Source: a virus (taxonomy: Duplodnaviria; Heunggongvirae; Uroviricota; Caudoviricetes). From it: 36,304 bases of DNA. Of this stretch, positions 1,985 to 36,304 are shown in pieces. Numbering within the stretch: the stretch's first letter is position 1; the number at the start of each line of letters is the position of its first letter. The stretch lies in IMG/VR virus record IMGVR_UViG_2512047041_000001; one strand, given 5' to 3'. The notes under the pieces were generated by a model. The model was not told the origin of the DNA and ran no database searches. It was given only the letters and a program-made list of their open reading frames with translations. Both the position numbers and the translations under genes were made by a program.

Positions 1985-2536
1985 ATGAAAACACTTATCG
2001 TTTCAACTGTATTGGCATTCATAACATTTTCTGCGCAGGCTGCAGCATTTCAGGTCACTAGTAATGAAATAAAAACAGGAGAGCAACTTACAACGTCTCA
2101 TGTCTTTTCTGGATTTGGGTGTGAAGGTGGTAATACATCGCCCTCATTAACCTGGTCTGGTGTTCCTGAAGGTACCAAAAGCTTTGCCGTAACTGTATAT
2201 GATCCAGATGCACTTACAGGCAGTGGTTGGTGGCATTGGACTGTTGTTAATATTCCAGCAACAATAACATATTTGCCCGTTGATGCAGGGAGACGTGATG
2301 GAACAAAACTGCCGACTGGTGCTGTTCAAGGCCGAAATGATTTTGGCTATGCTGGGTTTGGTGGCGCATGTCCTCCTAAAGGAGATAAACCACATCATTA
2401 CCAGTTTAAAGTATGGGCTCTAAAAACTGAAAAGATTCCTGTAGATTCTAACTCCAGCGGAGCGTTAGTTGGTTATATGCTTAATGCTAATAAAATCGCA
2501 ACCGCTGAGATAACACCAGTTTATGAGATAAAGTAG
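1985..2536 (+). CDS. ybcL: Secreted PEBP/Raf-kinase-inhibitor-like protein (YbcL-like, DLP12-type moron)
   Basis: 183 aa with N-terminal signal peptide (MKTLIVSTVLAFITFSAQA); matches the remembered YbcL/PEBP family; RBS AAAGAGG upstream. Confidence 0.8.
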   Translation: MKTLIVSTVLAFITFSAQAAAFQVTSNEIKTGEQLTTSHVFSGFGCEGGNTSPSLTWSGVPEGTKSFAVTVYDPDALTGSGWWHWTVVNIPATITYLPVDAGRRDGTKLPTGAVQGRNDFGYAGFGGACPPKGDKPHHYQFKVWALKTEKIPVDSNSSGALVGYMLNANKIATAEITPVYEIK

Positions 2537-2545
2537 GGTGAGAGT

Positions 2546-3343
2546 ATGCTGGCAAGAGGTAAGACTAACTTAAAGATCGAAGAAATACGGATGCATAAAC
2601 ATCATGAGATTCATAGGGTTAAGCCTCTTATGCCAGCTTTGTGTCGTATCCGTCAGGGAAAGAAAGTTATCAATTGGGAGACGCATACTTTAACTGTTGA
2701 TAATAATCAAATAATATTATTTCCTTGTGGTTATGAATTTTATATTGAGAATTATCCTGAAGCAGGGCTTTATCTTGCAGAAATGCTTTACTTACCCATT
2801 GATTTAATTGAGAGTTTCCAAAAACTTTATACGGTAACTGATCAAATACGTAACAAAACAAGTTTCTTTTTACCTCAGAATCCTGAGTTAATATATTGTT
2901 GGGAGCAACTAAAAACATCTGTTTCCCGAGGCTTCTCAACTAAAATTCAGGAGCACTTAGCAATGGGCGTTCTACTTTCGTTAGGAGTGAATCATGTTAA
3001 TCATTTACTTTTATCATATAGTAAACAATCATTGATAAGTCGTTGTTATAACCTGCTGCTATCCGAACCCGGCACAAAATGGACAGCAAACAAGGTTGCT
3101 CGATATCTCTACATTTCTGTTTCTACATTACATCGCCGTCTAGCAAGCGAGGGGGTAAGTTTCCAAAGTATACTGGACGATGTGAGGTTAAATAATGCGT
3201 TGTCTGCTATACAAACGACGGTAAAACCTATAAGCGAGATTGCCAGAGAAAATGGTTATAAGTGTCCTTCTCGTTTTACTGAAAGATTTCATAATCGTTT
3301 TAATATAACACCAAGAGAGATAAGAAAAGCTTCCAGAGAGTAA
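2546..3343 (+). CDS. ybcM: AraC/XylS-family transcriptional regulator (YbcM-like)
   Basis: 265 aa; C-terminal AraC-type HTH region ([18 protein letters not shown] ... [26 protein letters not shown]); AT-rich gene. Confidence 0.8.
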
Positions 3344-4962: not shown

Positions 4963-5047
4963 AGTCAGAGATAACAATCAACTAATACTGTTTTGTTGAT
5001 TTTTGCTTGTAATTGGCGTTCTGGTCTGAGTTTTGTGGAGTAAGTTG

Positions 5048-5425
5048 ATGCGTGATATTCAGATGGTTCTTGAGCGTTGGGGAGCGTGGGCGGCTAATAA
5101 TCATGAAGATGTGACCTGGTCGTCCATTGCCGCCGGTTTTAAGGGATTAATTCCTTCAAAAGTAAAATCTCGCCCGCAATGTTGTGACGATGACGCGATG
5201 ATCATTTGCGGGTGCATGGCCCGTCTGAAAAAGAACAACAGCGATTTGCATGATTTATTGGTGGACTATTATGTCGGCGGCATGACTTTTATGGCGCTTG
5301 CACGTAAGCATGGGCGATCTGATTGTTGGGTTGGCAGGATGCTCCAGAAAGCTGAGGGCGTAGTGGAGGGTATGCTGATGGTGTTGGATCTCCGATTGGA
5401 GATGGATGGTGATTGTTCGAAATAA
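5048..5425 (+). CDS. quuD: Late-gene antiterminator Q (phage 82/DLP12 QuuD type)
   Basis: Matches remembered QuuD from [24 protein letters not shown]; Cys-rich zinc-binding region [12 protein letters not shown]. Confidence 0.8.
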
Positions 5426-5524
5426 TTAAAGGAAAAGTTGCTGTCTGATTCTCATTAGTCTAACATTTTAAATGTTGGAATCGCAACGTAGTTATTATCA
5501 TATAACAGCTTGTTTCCTGATTTA

Positions 5525-5553
5525 GCCAGCCTCCCCAAAGGCTGGTTTTTTTC
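5525..5553 (+). terminator. Rho-independent terminator (tR'-like) downstream of Q: GC hairpin CCAGCC-loop-GGCTGG followed by T7
   Basis: Hairpin plus T-tract read directly; position downstream of Q where pR' and tR' lie in lambdoid phages. Confidence 0.45.
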
Positions 5554-5580
5554 TAATAAGTATTATTTCGGGTAGGGATT

Positions 5581-6105
5581 TTATTGTTTAACCCATAATA
5601 ATTCATTGACATTGAATCCCAACTTTTGAGCGGTTCGCACATAGTCTGCTTTTACTTTATCTGGAATAGTTGGGGTCCTTGCCAGAATCCATAGGTATTC
5701 TCTGTTCGGACCACTGACAAGAGCATACTTATACTCATCATCCAGTTTGATTACATTATAGCCACCATAGAAGGGGCCAAAAAACGAAACCTTCAACGCT
5801 GCAGTTTTAGTATCTCCAGTAAAGTATGCTTTACCTTCGCTCTCGCTCCATTTATTTTTCGTTGGATCGTATCCACGGTTAAGTACACGAATCCCTCCGT
5901 CGTTCCGTTTTCCATAGGTAGCGCTGACCTGTTCCAGACCACGTTCGAACCGGTTCTCGAGGCGAGCTATTTCATACCATTTTCCGAGGTAGCGGTTGGC
6001 GTCAAAATTTGTAATCGGCTGCACACCTTTAGGTGGTGTCGGGGCCTTACATGCTATAAGAGTGAAAGAGAGTGCAATGCCAGTCAACACAGGCCATAAC
6101 TTCAT
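5581..6105 (-). CDS. Outer-membrane lipocalin lipoprotein, Blc paralogue
   Basis: 174 aa; lipoprotein signal with lipobox LIAC; lipocalin motifs (GKWYEIARLENRFERG, FFGPFYGGYNVI) closely resembling remembered E. coli Blc. Confidence 0.8.
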   Translation of the reverse strand: MKLWPVLTGIALSFTLIACKAPTPPKGVQPITNFDANRYLGKWYEIARLENRFERGLEQVSATYGKRNDGGIRVLNRGYDPTKNKWSESEGKAYFTGDTKTAALKVSFFGPFYGGYNVIKLDDEYKYALVSGPNREYLWILARTPTIPDKVKADYVRTAQKLGFNVNELLWVKQ

Positions 6106-6297
6106 AATAAATCCTGTACTTTTGATAGTTGAGAGTAAGTATGAAAGATAGATGATTACGACCGATCACTTAAAGAACTTTCATACTATATTAGGAATAG
6201 TCTATAACAGAAAAATTGTCAGTGATGACGCCAGAAAGGCAATTTATTCCGTGCACTACACAGTTTATGTGTTAATGAATTAGTCAAGGGGGAGAAT

Positions 6298-7257
6298 ATG
6301 ATAAAAAAACCTGTGATTGGAATCAGCGGTTGTTTGGCCGGCTCTGCTGTTCGTTTTGATGGTGGTCACAAAAGAGCTGACTTTTTAATGGACAAATTAG
6401 TGGAATGGGTAACATTCAGACCAGTATGTCCGGAAATGGCTATAGGGCTGCCAGTTCCGCGTCCTGCTCTACGTCTTGTGCGCTCGACGCAAGGAAATAT
6501 ACGGATGTGTTTCAGCCACGACCAGAATGAGGATGTGACAGAGAGAATGACAGAGTTTAGTCGTTCTTATATGGACAAATTAAAGGATGTATCGGGGTTT
6601 GTGGTTTGTGCTAAATCTCCCAGCTGTGGCATGGAGCGCGTGCGTGTCTATGATGAAAATGGTAATCGAGGTCGTAAAGATGGAGTGGGACTATTTACGA
6701 GCACTTTGATGGAAAAGTTTTCTTGGCTACCGGTTGAAGAGGATGGGCGATTACATGATCCAGTGCTTCGTGAGAATTTTGTTGAAAGAGTTTTTGCTTT
6801 GCATGAGCTCAATCACCTTTACAAGGAGAAATTATCAAGAAGAGAGTTATTAGCTTTTCATAGTCGTTATAAGCTTCAGTTGTTGGCGCATAGTCAGGCA
6901 GGCTATAAAGATATGGGACCATTTGTGGCTGCAATACACGAGTGGGCGGACCTTGAATCATACTTTGAGGTGTATCGTGATAAGCTGATGGCGATTCTCA
7001 GAAAACCTGCATCACGTAAAAATCACACGAATGTGCTGATGCATATACAGGGGTATTTTAGTAACTACTTAAGTACACGCCAGCGTAAAGAGTTGAGCGA
7101 GGTTATACTTAACTATCGTTCTGGCACATTACCTCTTCTTGCGCCGTTGACTCTGCTGAAGCATTATCTGGGTGAGTATCCTAATGATTACTTGCTTACA
7201 CAGAATTACTTCGATCCCTATCCGGACGAACTGGCTCTAAGACTGATGGTAAATTAA
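6298..7257 (+). CDS. DUF523 (TudS-like [4Fe-4S] desulfidase domain) fused to DUF1722 (YbgA-like); RudS-like putative tRNA 4-thiouridine desulfidase
   Basis: 319 aa; N-terminal Cys pattern (GISGCLAG, PVCPEM, KSPSCGME) consistent with the three-Cys TudS cluster site; C-terminal half resembles YbgA/DUF1722; assignment from memory, not searched. Confidence 0.55.
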   Translation: MIKKPVIGISGCLAGSAVRFDGGHKRADFLMDKLVEWVTFRPVCPEMAIGLPVPRPALRLVRSTQGNIRMCFSHDQNEDVTERMTEFSRSYMDKLKDVSGFVVCAKSPSCGMERVRVYDENGNRGRKDGVGLFTSTLMEKFSWLPVEEDGRLHDPVLRENFVERVFALHELNHLYKEKLSRRELLAFHSRYKLQLLAHSQAGYKDMGPFVAAIHEWADLESYFEVYRDKLMAILRKPASRKNHTNVLMHIQGYFSNYLSTRQRKELSEVILNYRSGTLPLLAPLTLLKHYLGEYPNDYLLTQNYFDPYPDELALRLMVN

Positions 7258-7599
7258 TTGTATGCGATATCATCCAAAAGGATGAGTTCCTGCATGCAGG
7301 ATATTTACAATCGTAAAAACTACACTATGATACCCAGAGTGTCAGTTTGTATAAAAACTCTGTTTACGCTGAAGAAACCATTGAGATGCAACTTAAAGTT
7401 GGTAAACATGCCAGTCAAAATATATAATATTATGATTCCACGCAGCTATATATAATATAACAGATTGGTTTAATAATTTGTCTTTGTGAGTTAAATACAT
7501 AATTTTATACTTGTGATGCAATGAGATTTTCCTTATTGTTGAACTGGCGAATATTGATTTTCCACCTATACTTACCTGGTGTAACCCCAATGATATCAG

Positions 7600-8340
7600 G
7601 TGGATAATATGCCATACATATGTTCTATCATTTTGGTGTTGAACTCGTTTGATGTCCGAATTGGTAAAGAAGATATTTTGTTTAAAAAAGGAAGTGCTGT
7701 TCTCATTGATTACAATTTAAAAGATTTTTTTTCATCAAATATAGATCATGTAATGATCGTAGATGTTGAAGAGAAAACAGTTAATGATTTCTTTAAAAGC
7801 AACACACTCTCACCTTTTTCTGTAAGAAGGTTTTATCCGGCATACTTGATGGTGGAATGTGAAGATTTTTCATTGTTAAAGAACTTGATTGCATGCTTGA
7901 ATTGTGATGGCAGAACTGTGGATTTTGTTAGAAATCAAATATCACTTGCATGTCTTGCTATCTTATCTTCAGAGAAAATAGTGCAAAGTTTTTTATTTGG
8001 ATGTCTTAATAGTTTAGGAAGTAAAGTTAAGGCTATTATTCACACGGATATATCTGCAGCATGGAGACTTTGTGATATATCTTCAAGACTGTATCTGAGT
8101 GAAAGTCTGTTAAAAAGAAAATTAAAGCACGAAGGCTTATCATTTAGTAAGTTAATTCTTGAAGAGCGAATGGTGATGGCGGAAAGGTTATTAAGCTACA
8201 ATTTATATTCTGTTGGAAAAGTTGCTGAGATATGCGGTTATGAAAACACGTCATATTTTGTAAGTGTTTTCAGAAGATATTTTGGTGTTCCTCCCCATCA
8301 ATATTCATCAAGACTTTTTTTAGAAAAAGACATGATGTAA
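7600..8340 (+). CDS. AraC/XylS-family transcriptional regulator (AppY/EnvY-like subfamily), AT-rich
   Basis: 246 aa; C-terminal AraC HTH region (VGKVAEICGYENTSYFVSVFRRYFGVPPHQY); about 340 bp AT-rich leader upstream. Confidence 0.7.
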   Translation: MDNMPYICSIILVLNSFDVRIGKEDILFKKGSAVLIDYNLKDFFSSNIDHVMIVDVEEKTVNDFFKSNTLSPFSVRRFYPAYLMVECEDFSLLKNLIACLNCDGRTVDFVRNQISLACLAILSSEKIVQSFLFGCLNSLGSKVKAIIHTDISAAWRLCDISSRLYLSESLLKRKLKHEGLSFSKLILEERMVMAERLLSYNLYSVGKVAEICGYENTSYFVSVFRRYFGVPPHQYSSRLFLEKDMM

Positions 8341-8401
8341 CGTGATGCGTTTTAATGATTTTGTAATTTTCGTATTTGATAATTGTATGATGCTTTCAGC
8401 T

Positions 8402-8433
8402 ACGCCAGAATAATCGCTGGCGTTTTTCTTTTT
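8402..8433 (+). terminator. Rho-independent terminator between the AraC-like gene and the holin (ACGCCAG-loop-CTGGCGT followed by a T-rich tract)
   Basis: Hairpin and T-tract read directly. Confidence 0.5.
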
Positions 8434-8528
8434 GAATAGATGTTCAAGCCTTACGCTAATGTAACTTCTATACCTTTCCTCTTCGTTCCGAACCGTGTAC
8501 ACCATCCGTTATTTGCGGAGGTGAGGCT

Positions 8529-8744
8529 ATGAAATCCATGGATAAGTTAACAACGGGCATTGCCTACGGCACCTCCGCAGGCAGTGCTGGCTACTGGTTT
8601 TTACAGCTGCTCGATAAAGTCACGCCCTCACAGTGGGCAGCAATAGGTGTGCTGGGTAGCTTGGTATTTGGCTTGCTGACGTACCTGACAAACCTTTATT
8701 TCAAGATTAAAGAAGATAAGCGCAAGGCTGCGAGAGGTGAATAA
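8529..8744 (+). CDS. essD: Holin, phage-21 S21 pinholin type (EssD-like)
   Basis: 71 aa, two transmembrane segments and charged C-terminus; matches remembered EssD/S21. Confidence 0.85.
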
Positions 8745-9241
8745 TGCCTCCATCATTACGAAAAGCCGTTGCTGCTGCTATTGGTGGCGGAGCAATTGCT
8801 ATAGCATCAGTGTTAATCACTGGCTCAAGTGGTAACGATGGTCTGGAGGGTGTCAGCTATATACCATACAAAGATATTGTTGGTGTATGGACTGTATGTC
8901 ACGGGCATACAGGAAAAGACATCATGCTCGGTAAAACGTATACCAAAGCAGAATGCAAAGCACTCTTGAATAAAGACCTTGCCACTGTCGCCAGACAAAT
9001 TAACCCGTACATCAAAGTCGATATACCGGAAACAACGCGCGGCGCTCTTTACTCATTCGTTTACAACGTGGGTGCTGGCAATTTCAGAACATCGACGCTT
9101 CTTCGCAAAATAAACCAGGGCGATATCAAAGGCGCATGTGATCAGCTACGTCGCTGGACATATGCTGGCGGTAAGCAATGGAAAGGTCTCATGACTCGTC
9201 GTGAGATTGAGCGTGAAATCTGTTTGTGGGGTCAGCAATGA
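8744..9241 (+). CDS. rrrD: SAR endolysin (lysozyme, RrrD/R21-like)
   Basis: 165 aa; N-terminal signal-anchor-release segment ([20 protein letters not shown]) followed by a lysozyme domain; start overlaps the holin stop. Confidence 0.85.
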
Positions 9242-9730: not shown

Positions 9731-10024
9731 TTATTGTGAGCAATACACACGCGCTTCCAGCGGAGTATAAATGCCTAAAGTAATAAAACCGAGAAATCCA
9801 TTTACGAATGTTTGCTGGGTTTCTGTTTTAACAACATTTTCTGCGCCGCCACAAATTTTGGCTGCATCAACAGTTTTCTCCTGTCCAATTCCCGAAACGA
9901 AGAAATGATGGGTGATGGTTTCCTTTGGTGTTACTGCTGTCGGTTTGTTTCCAACAGTAAACGTCTGTTGAGCACATCCTGTAATAAGCATTGCCAGAGC
10001 GGCAGAAAACAACATTTTTTTCAT
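9731..10024 (-). CDS. borD: Bor lipoprotein (serum-resistance/Iss family lysogenic conversion protein)
   Basis: 97 aa from MKKMLFSAALAMLITGCAQQ; lipobox ITGC; matches remembered lambda Bor. Confidence 0.85.
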   Translation of the reverse strand: MKKMLFSAALAMLITGCAQQTFTVGNKPTAVTPKETITHHFFVSGIGQEKTVDAAKICGGAENVVKTETQQTFVNGFLGFITLGIYTPLEARVYCSQ

Positions 10025-35198: not shown

Positions 35199-35323
35199 GT
35201 ATATGCAACGGAGGAAGAAACCTCGTTGCGGGAAGCCTGGAAGAAGTATCGGGTGTTGCTGAACCGTGTTGATACATCAACTGCACCTGATATTGAGTGG
35301 CCTACGAACCCTGTCAGGGAGTA
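35199..35323 (+). pseudogene. tfa: 3' remnant of a tail fibre assembly gene (tfa): the last ~40 codons only
   Basis: Translation ...[38 protein letters not shown] matches the conserved Tfa C-terminus; in-frame stop directly upstream. Confidence 0.7.
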
Positions 35324-35378
35324 ATCATTGGGATTATGCCGCAGCACGTCTTAAGCAAGAACGTGCTGCGGTTGGATG

Positions 35379-36047
35379 CTATTTTTTCCCTGAAGCGGAA
35401 AACATTACTACAGTACCTTGAACCTTGGTTTTAACATTCTCGAAATGCTCTGAGAGTATATGTGTTAAGCCTTCTTCGGAATCTTTTGTGTTTGAAAAGA
35501 TGCCTTTCTGATTGTAAATGCGCATCAGTTTTTGACCGAAGCTATTGTGCACAACTCCATCGCCAAGAATTGTGGCTCCGTATAGAGTTCCATCGTCAGT
35601 TAAGGCCTGCGCCGCATTGCGTATTACACAGCTTTTTGTAGATATATTTCCAGGCAGGCAGTGAAGAAGGTAAAACATGGAAATGGAATCAAATTGACCA
35701 TGTAACGCCGCGGGATAAGGTTCAAAAACATCATGGCTAATTTTATGTTTAATTTTTGATTCCCCAGCCCTTGTAGATGCCGCGTTCAGGCTAGCTTCGT
35801 TCAAATCCATTAAAGATATCAGACTACTCTCAGGTACGTGAGTAAGGTAAAACCCAGTTCCAACACCAATATCCAGATGGTTGTTACCTAAATGTTCCAG
35901 AAAGTGTGGAAGAAGGTGTTCCTTTGTAGGACATCCCCATGCAAGCCGATTTGATACTCCCAAAACCCACCAGTCATAAAGCTTTAGGGTAAGTGGTGTG
36001 TAAATTTTAGCCCCATCATCTGTGTTTTTTTTCATTAATTTCACCAT
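35379..36047 (-). CDS. ybcY: Class I SAM-dependent methyltransferase (YbcY-like), low-GC
   Basis: Motif I LDIGVGTGFY, acidic beta-2 end (LMDLN), motif FDSISMFYLLHCLPG; no DPPY/NPPY DNA-methyltransferase motif; flanked by tfa fragments as remembered for DLP12. Confidence 0.65.
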   Translation of the reverse strand: MVKLMKKNTDDGAKIYTPLTLKLYDWWVLGVSNRLAWGCPTKEHLLPHFLEHLGNNHLDIGVGTGFYLTHVPESSLISLMDLNEASLNAASTRAGESKIKHKISHDVFEPYPAALHGQFDSISMFYLLHCLPGNISTKSCVIRNAAQALTDDGTLYGATILGDGVVHNSFGQKLMRIYNQKGIFSNTKDSEEGLTHILSEHFENVKTKVQGTVVMFSASGKK

Positions 36048-36103
36048 GTTATAGTTTTATTTGTGAATTAAATCAATTATGGCGATGAATTACAAGGGGT
36101 TAA

Positions 36104-36304
36104 ATGCTGCCGCAGCATAGCGATATTGAAATAGCCTGGTATGCTTCGATACAGCAGGAGCCGAATGGCTGGAAGACCGTCACCACACAGTTCTACATCC
36201 AGGAATTCAGTGAGTATATTGCGCCACTGCAGGATGCTGGGAAATCGCAACGGAGGAAGAAAGATCGTTGCTGGAGGCATGGAATAAATATCGGGTATTG
36301 TTGA
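36104..36304 (+). pseudogene. tfa: 5'-truncated, frameshifted tail fibre assembly gene fragment (tfa-like), running to the window edge
   Basis: HSDIEIAWYASIQQEPNGWKTVTTQFYIQEFSEYIAPLQDA matches Tfa family proteins; the conserved continuation EIATEEERSLLEAWNKYRVLL is in a different frame from about 36245; no Tfa N-terminus upstream. Confidence 0.65.

Follow-up and report, generated by a model that had tools for sequence, protein, structure and literature searches.

A composite lipocalin, rudS and regulator cassette in the Q-to-holin slot of a DLP12-like prophage

What lies between the late antiterminator gene Q and the holin gene of a lambdoid prophage, does it belong to the phage backbone or to its cargo, and is its expression tied to induction? 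We address these questions for a 36,304-nucleotide stretch of viral DNA (IMG/VR record IMGVR_UViG_2512047041_000001), referred to here as the window, to whose positions all coordinates below refer. The window is a DLP12-like lambdoid prophage in which about 3.1 kb of DNA, the cassette, separates Q (5048-5425, plus strand) from the holin gene essD (8529-8744, plus strand; PF04971), the first lysis gene. An original prediction, made from the sequence of this interval, had proposed an AT-rich cargo module of three genes, bracketed by terminators and read through by Q-antiterminated late transcription. Our analysis indicates that the locus is very probably a composite moron cassette, in which two juxtaposed units occupy the Q-to-holin slot and would be subject to Q-dependent read-through when the prophage is induced.

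The three genes are found as predicted. A minus-strand lipocalin gene (blc; 5581-6105, 174 amino acids) is matched by Pfam and NCBIfam models. The divergent DUF523/DUF1722 gene, called rudS here for the reasons given below (6298-7257, plus strand, 319 amino acids), starts on the other side of a 192 bp, 33% GC intergenic region (6106-6297) that presumably holds the promoters of both. An AraC/XylS-family regulator gene (7609-8340, plus strand, 243 amino acids) follows a 351 bp leader of 32.5% GC (7258-7608, plus strand). A composition check confirmed the AT-richness of the cassette, which has 38.3% GC as compared with 51.2% for the whole window, 49-54% for its flanks and 54% for the structural genes; GC content at third codon positions (GC3) is 0.26-0.41 in the cassette genes and 0.62 in the terminase gene.

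Whether this DNA is cargo was decided by comparing the same slot across related prophages. On both sides of the cassette, the flanks are 96-98% identical to the DLP12 prophage of Escherichia coli K-12. Homology stops at position 5407, 18 nt before the Q stop codon, and restarts at 8518, 11 nt before the holin start. What the K-12 flanks enclose is not a conserved backbone segment but nmpC::IS5 on the minus strand, in keeping with the earlier statement that nmpC fills this slot in DLP12. A 6.8-kb query spanning the slot matched 5234 of 5426 complete E. coli genomes, among which the same backbone carries this cassette, a porin gene, or a different Q with neither cargo. Backbones without the cassette thus exist, an indirect hint that it may be dispensable for lytic growth. 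The converse arrangement is found as well. A Qin-type prophage shares exactly positions 5005-8745, comprising Q, the cassette and the holin gene, and nothing else, and the same Q-cassette-holin unit is present in phages of lambda type whose early regions contain ninB/ninX. Because the same flanks hold other cargo, and the same unit sits in other backbones (three types in all), the region is exchangeable cargo rather than backbone, and the mobile unit extends from Q to holin, with essD as its right-hand anchor. Strain LF82 has nmpC and not the cassette, and transcriptomes of its prophages were set aside as expression evidence for that reason.

The cassette shares its slot and flanking genes with the other lambdoid Q-to-holin morons, nmpC in DLP12 and stx in Stx phages, and, like them, it is set off from the backbone by its base composition and lies between two terminators. 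As is nmpC in DLP12, blc is on the minus strand, and two of the three cassette genes are sense-oriented, as is stx, the expression of which is Q-dependent. What is carried is not the same, however: the nmpC and stx slots contain a porin or a toxin, and this one a lipocalin, an eraser of a tRNA modification and a regulator. With respect to the properties by which morons are recognized, the cassette is present or absent at the same position among close relatives and has a deviant base composition. As to autonomous transcription from the repressed prophage, there is a strong terminator at 8402-8433 and a conserved promoter-like site at 7304-7331, and the identical Blc protein is detected in a lysogen; for blc and rudS only weak candidate promoters were seen, and promoter-like matches in the region are no more frequent than expected by chance.

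The cassette is widespread. The 3.1-kb sequence matches 1155 of the 5426 complete E. coli genomes, in 991 of which it is present to an extent of 80% or more. It also occurs in 12 phage records, which include 1H12 and induced infant-gut lambdoid phages (Mathieu et al. 2020). Plaque-forming or induced phages that carry it in this position are 1H12, Lambda_2E9 and IdasGreatGrand. Since these viable phages have their lysis genes 3.1 kb downstream of Q, late transcription must cross the cassette. In some strains it is interrupted or truncated by the insertion sequences (IS) IS1, IS2 or IS3, and a search for natural blc-rudS cassettes lacking the regulator found only deletions mediated by IS1 and IS3. 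Two short contigs of a 'Candidatus Nanosynbacter' metagenome-assembled genome (JARKOR01) encode Q, Blc, RudS, the AraC-like protein, holin and endolysin with 94-100% protein identity; these copies are almost certainly a binning contaminant.

The product of the middle gene contains PF04463 (residues 7-149) and PF08349 (residues 192-309), both far above their cut-offs, and is thus a TudS(DUF523)-DUF1722 fusion. Fusions of this type, including RudS_vir of phage 1H12 (gp66), remove 4-thiouridine (s4U) from tRNA (Jamontas et al., Nucleic Acids Res 2024, PMC11417400). As a criterion for RudS we used the cluster cysteines together with the catalytic Glu, Arg and two Ser residues, which in RudS_KT are C17/C49/C114, E51, R60, S111 and S113. 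The window protein is 93.4% identical to RudS_vir, from which it differs at 21 amino acids, and it retains C12, C44, C110, E46, R55, S107 and S109, exactly as in RudS_vir. By these residues the DUF523/DUF1722 gene is RudS, a predicted tRNA 4-thiouridine desulfidase. RudS_vir also occupies the same cassette position in 1H12, where gp64 is Q, gp65 Blc, gp66 RudS_vir, gp67 the AraC-like protein and gp68 the holin. In the published study the enzyme was taken out of this context, and its position, neighbors and regulation were not the subject (PMC11417400). E. coli was stated there to be without a TudS/RudS homologue. Contrary to that statement, prophage rudS is present in 21% of complete E. coli genomes, and the absence of RudS from E. 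coli holds for laboratory strains only. A cut copy was seen in BL21(DE3), where a Qin-like prophage (NC_012971.2, 1584189-1593207) carries Q, an intact lipocalin gene and a rudS fragment of which IS3 has left only the initial 147 nt.

Do the three genes form a single evolutionary unit, as the word module implies? A RudS protein scan with one genome per species returned 64 loci. Two were the Nanosynbacter cassette fragments and were left out, and the remaining 62 are chromosomal loci in Citrobacter, Enterobacter, Leclercia, Kluyvera, Klebsiella, Pectobacterium and other genera. A divergent Blc gene lies upstream of the RudS gene in 42 of the 62, with approximately 80% and 73% amino acid identity to the window proteins, and the AraC gene is present at none. 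In Citrobacter sedlakii, blc and rudS are directly adjacent and about 190 bp apart, as they are in the phage cassette. The chromosomal loci differ from the cassette in having neither an AraC gene nor phage genes and, mostly, in having a MerR/MlrA-like regulator, which is found between blc and rudS in at least 35 of them, often together with a transthyretin-like gene. In Enterobacter, Leclercia and relatives (35 loci) the order is blc on the minus strand, the MerR/MlrA-like gene, a transthyretin-like gene of the HIUase family and rudS, and this conserved four-gene locus appears to be uncharacterised as a unit. The Salmonella enzyme RudS_ST was published as ORF319, a name that hints at a similar neighborhood there. 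Linkage of these chromosomal relatives to photolyase was rejected, since no photolyase gene lies within 6 kb of any of the 62 loci; this leaves the RudS literature as the sole basis for the idea of a light-response locus, to which literature on lipocalins and LitR regulons added nothing.

The AraC gene also sets itself apart within the cassette. It has 31.8% GC and a GC3 of 0.26, as compared with about 44% GC for blc and rudS. Protein identity between cassette variants is 97% for Blc and 93% for RudS, but 82% for the AraC protein, and insertions and deletions abound in the leader that separates its gene from rudS. Because the chromosomal pairs are without an AraC gene, because GC content and divergence differ, and because relatives of the AraC protein stand alone elsewhere (see below), we conclude from neighborhood and composition that the cassette is composite: blc-rudS is an old enterobacterial chromosomal pair, and the AraC gene a separately acquired moron of lower GC content. 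The proposal of a three-gene cargo module is thus supported, with the refinement that the three genes are not one evolutionary unit.

In the case of the lipocalin, PF08212 matches with an E value of 7e-44, the protein scores 316 bits against the NCBIfam Blc subfamily model NF007786 (cut-off 267), and its signal sequence ends in the lipobox L-I-A-C, as expected of a Blc-type outer-membrane lipocalin lipoprotein. It aligns end to end with the structures of E. coli chromosomal Blc (PDB 1QWD, 2ACO and 3MBT; E 3e-69), with which it has the subfamily score and lipobox in common. It differs from chromosomal Blc in being a second, diverged paralogue that resides beside the host's own blc. An identical protein, WP_000780581.1, has been quantified by proteomics in a carbapenem-resistant clinical strain, in which its level rose 2- to 3-fold 15 min after meropenem, and prophage blc is therefore expressed. 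In 2020, blc was reported as a moron in more than half of the lambda phages of Mathieu et al. The 192-bp blc-rudS intergenic region is nearly invariant among four phage variants and contains only weak matches to consensus promoters. No regulatory signals shared between the phage region and its chromosomal (Citrobacter) counterpart were found, the two DNAs not being alignable.

The regulator has a C-terminal double helix-turn-helix (PF12833, HTH_18, 54.9 bits, cut-off 33.6; PF00165, HTH_AraC, 44.1 bits, cut-off 26.6). We place its start at the ATG at 7609, which was chosen by the NCBI Prokaryotic Genome Annotation Pipeline (PGAP) in an identical genome; a mechanical list of open reading frames (ORFs) gives GTG at 7600. 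The best NCBIfam match, YdeO (NF007407), is full length at 126.8 bits against a cut-off of 348, which marks the protein as a clade relative of YdeO and not YdeO itself. Identities are 53.6% to ECs_0287 of strain Sakai (235 amino acids), 34% to GadW, 32% to YdeO and 31% to AppY, and by sequence the regulator belongs to the GadW/AppY/YdeO/PatE clade. ECs_0287 is the sole AraC-type gene of prophage Sp1 at thrW in Sakai. Sp1 corresponds to CP-933H/OI-8, the home of PatE (z0321). PatE, PsrB and AppY are regulators encoded by prophages, and by activating gadE/hdeA they make the host more acid-resistant. We accordingly assigned ECs_0287 as PatE by its location in Sp1/CP-933H, not by accession.

PatE (CP-933H/Sp1), PsrA/PsrB, AppY (DLP12) and the cassette regulator are all AT-rich, prophage-encoded and stand-alone. 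The cassette regulator and its PatE-type relatives are related over their full length and have a common N-terminal motif, M..[VI]CS[VI]I... They differ in position, since the cassette regulator is in the Q-holin slot, while PatE (Sp1) and AppY (DLP12) are at the tail-fibre/integrase site; relatives with 52-53% identity in phages mEp332, PhiR70_1 and ev099 likewise lie alone between the tail-fibre genes and integrase. From these relationships the regulator most likely acts in trans on host acid-resistance genes rather than on its neighbors.

Within the leader, a sigma-70-like site, TTTACA-16-TATGAT (7304-7331), is the top promoter match of the region (10/12). Its two hexamers do not vary among four versions of the leader, which are otherwise divergent and rich in insertions and deletions. 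The site is likely to be the promoter of the regulator gene, whose transcript would then begin with some 270 or more untranslated nucleotides. Positions 7348-7450 are a hotspot of insertion and deletion, with about 55 additional bases in the Qin-type variant and about 80 bases replaced in the Lambda_2E9 type; the invariant blocks are 7304-7331, approximately 7520-7540, and 7559-7575. A 65-amino acid ORF in the leader (7258-7455) had no match in family searches.

The remaining question is how late transcription enters and leaves the cassette. The 125-residue Q protein matches PF06530 (E 2.5e-51) and is labelled 'antiterminator Q family protein' by PGAP in the identical genome. It is 87.5% identical to K-12 QuuD and represents a QuuD-like allele that is always found with the cargo; the match to the solved Q21 structure 6p18 is distant (E 2e-8). 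The spacer that follows Q (5426-5523, plus strand) was examined by alignment with K-12 and Lambda_2E9 and by motif search. It contains a candidate late promoter pR', with TTGGAA at 5475-5480, a 15-nt gap and TATCAT at 5496-5501, an assignment we infer from sequence. The motif ATATAACAG follows Q here and quuD in K-12 DLP12, and its spacing from the end of the Q gene is similar in the two. A 20-nt direct repeat of 85% identity was also observed, with one copy, TATCATATAACAGCTTGTTT (5496-5515), in this candidate promoter region and the other, TATAATATAACAGATTGGTT (7451-7470), in the regulator leader; the motif TATMATATAACAG occurs twice, against 0.07 expected. A duplicated late promoter before the regulator was considered and rejected: the Lambda_2E9/CFSAN061770 variants have lost the second copy, and the similarity is confined to the core. 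The Qin-type variant retains the second copy.

Two intrinsic terminators had been predicted, one tR'-like at the upstream end and one closing the module, and both are borne out as conserved plus-strand hairpins of low folding energy with T-runs. The tR'-like terminator (5524-5554) has a 9-bp G+C-rich stem in a hairpin at 5524-5547, followed by TTTTTCT (-14.9 kcal/mol, z -4.19). The second, found by a terminator scan (8402-8433), has a hairpin at 8402-8423 followed by TTTTCTTTTT (-11.3 kcal/mol, z -2.23) and ends 95 bp upstream of the holin gene. Both are retained in the 89%-identical phage variant Lambda_2E9, the second one identically. With the Q stop codon ending at 5425, the first stem, which begins at 5524, lies within the approximately 100-200 nt expected of a Q-dependent leader. 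No further plus-strand terminator is predicted between 5524-5554 and 8402-8433.

The working we propose combines this architecture with what is established about Q antitermination, in which Q-loaded polymerase passes terminators. The first unit is the divergent blc-rudS pair, copied from an enterobacterial chromosomal stress locus. In the lysogen, blc would be made from its own promoter, a reading suggested by its transcription against the late operon, an orientation that matches nmpC in K-12 and iss/bor; rudS and the regulator gene may each have a promoter of their own that is active there as well. RudS would act as a [4Fe-4S] desulfidase, converting tRNA 4-thiouridine, which makes tRNA sensitive to ultraviolet A (UVA), back to uridine. 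The regulator, which constitutes the second unit, would by family precedent act in trans on the host acid-resistance promoters of gadE and hdeA. Also in the lysogen, the terminator at 5524-5554 would stop constitutive transcripts from the promoter just after Q, and that at 8402-8433 would keep cassette transcription out of the lysis genes. Upon induction, Q-modified RNA polymerase starting just after Q would pass both terminators, moving antisense through blc, sense through rudS and the regulator gene, and on to the lysis and structural genes. That rudS and the regulator gene would be read through in this way is a sound deduction from the architecture, and each step of expression and regulation, as well as any fitness benefit of the cassette, is proposed in the same conditional sense.

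Several observations weigh against this scheme. In the region after Q, the late promoter and Q-binding element have the status of candidates, and the DNA is not alignable with K-12 beyond the 9-nt motif. Between 4800 and 9000 we counted 13 promoter-like and 4 terminator-like sites where shuffled sequence gives 11.2 and 3.5; what makes the two terminators convincing is how strong, well placed and conserved they are, and not site number. The MerR/MlrA-like regulator that most chromosomal copies possess is gone from the phage copy. At 54% identity to the PatE-locus protein and with a score below the YdeO cut-off, the regulator has an uncertain claim to the targets of PatE and YdeO. Finally, overexpressed RudS_vir was less active in tRNA desulfidation than other RudS enzymes (PMC11417400).

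These points bear on three other ways of reading the locus. The cassette could be one self-contained module, in which the AraC-like protein responds to a signal and itself governs the divergent blc and rudS promoters, in place of the MerR/MlrA-like regulator. The three genes nearly always travel together, as seen in the 991 genomes with most of the cassette and in the restriction of AraC-less copies to IS-mediated deletions; the phage copy, being without a MerR-type regulator, would need another; and the phage variants differ very little in the intergenic region. Co-occurrence is, however, also explained by movement of the Q-to-holin segment as one recombination unit. No chromosomal blc-rudS locus has an AraC regulator, the GC content (32%) and divergence pattern of the regulator are unlike those of blc-rudS, and its homologues (PatE, AppY, GadW, YdeO and the mEp332/ev099 proteins) are stand-alone genes that act on host GAD-island promoters. 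On this evidence we regard direct local control as quite unlikely. It is also unlikely, in our estimate, that rudS is mainly a phage auxiliary gene, expressed late and Q-dependently after ultraviolet (UV) induction so that erasure of s4U8 prevents UVA cross-linking and translation arrest. Such a role would fit the sense orientation of rudS, which starts 740 bp beyond the tR'-like terminator without a predicted plus-strand terminator in the interval, its intactness in free-living phages, and the finding that overexpressed RudS reduces s4U and makes the growth delay induced by UVA shorter (PMC11417400). Against it, late expression may come too late to alter the tRNA pool, the genes ancestral to the pair serve cellular stress on the chromosome, and the lysogen could express rudS too if 6106-6297 holds a promoter for it; the weaker activity of RudS_vir on tRNA in the published test counts here as well.

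At the other extreme, the cassette could be inert, hitch-hiking DNA or a decaying remnant caught between the recombination anchors Q and holin. Insertions and truncations by IS1, IS2 and IS3 in some strains, such as the BL21(DE3) copy reduced to blc and 147 nt of rudS, and the membership of all three proteins in PHROG families of unknown function would be expected of such DNA. We consider this very improbable. The three ORFs are intact in roughly 1000 genomes and 12 phages, across variants 89% identical in DNA; the RudS catalytic residues are kept and protein identity is high; the Blc protein is made, and RudS_vir is active (PMC11417400). The composite cassette with Q-dependent read-through is the reading we retain. 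A more far-reaching version of it, in which a tRNA-modification eraser is coupled to the late switch, is a long shot: sunlight or UV would trigger SOS induction and with it Q-driven RudS, RudS would strip the UVA-sensitive s4U8 from host tRNAs, and tRNA cross-linking and a stringent-type translation arrest would be avoided while virions are built. As part of the same speculation, the late transcript would silence blc head-on and boost a PatE-like regulator that rewires acid-stress genes.

Other features of the window are consistent with its assignment as a prophage of the DLP12 type. Upstream of the cassette the order is IS3, a ybcK remnant, ybcL, ybcM, ybcN, ninE, ybcO, rusA, ylcG and Q; downstream it is essD, rrrD, rzpD, iss/bor, nohD, terminase and a full lambda-type head and tail set. 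The nin region contains a second AT-rich island (1985-3343, about 36-39% GC), arranged as in K-12 DLP12, with ybcL, which encodes a PEBP/Raf-kinase-inhibitor-like periplasmic protein, and ybcM. The latter is another AraC-family regulator, only 22% identical to that of the cassette (C-terminal domain only), and its regulon is said to be uncharacterised. The serum-resistance lipoprotein gene iss/bor (9731-10024, minus strand), which comes after the lysis genes, is a further outer-membrane moron expressed in the lysogen against the direction of late transcription, as are blc here and nmpC in K-12. Unlike K-12 DLP12, the window retains a full lambda-type set of terminase, portal, head and tail genes (10692-36304), and its right end (35205-36304, about 1.1 kb) is again approximately 99% identical to the DLP12 right end (ybcY/tfaX region). 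The prophage thus seems to be a fuller relative of DLP12, and it occupies argU, as it does in strain AR_0013. No tRNA genes, which are known from this slot in Stx phages, were found across the window, and an Rfam scan gave only sub-threshold chance matches, the best of which was the terminator hairpin itself. PHROG places each of the three cassette proteins in its own family of unknown function. None of them matched a PADLOC defence model, and a role in anti-phage defence was ruled against on that basis.

The cassette is not new. It is common in E. coli, and its parts have been sequenced, annotated and partly characterised; none of our findings is surprising to a phage specialist. What is added here is the RudS identity of the middle gene, the composite origin, the assignment of the regulator to the PatE clade and the definition of the mobile unit as Q to holin. 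A gap in the record is also corrected, in that about one in five complete E. coli genomes has a prophage RudS, the gene for which always lies between Q and holin, beside a second Blc paralogue and a PatE-like regulator. The comparison shows how such a cassette was assembled, from an old chromosomal pair and an unrelated regulator, and how it moves as one Q-to-holin unit between lambdoid backbones.

For the biology of lambdoid phages, the cassette bears on whether cargo in the Q-to-holin slot is generally tied to induction, as stx is. The point of interest is whether expression of rudS is tied to induction or not, and whether s4U erasure helps the phage or the lysogen under UVA. If the coupling of RudS to the late switch were true, the phage would be reprogramming the tRNA epitranscriptome of its host, with antitermination setting the time.

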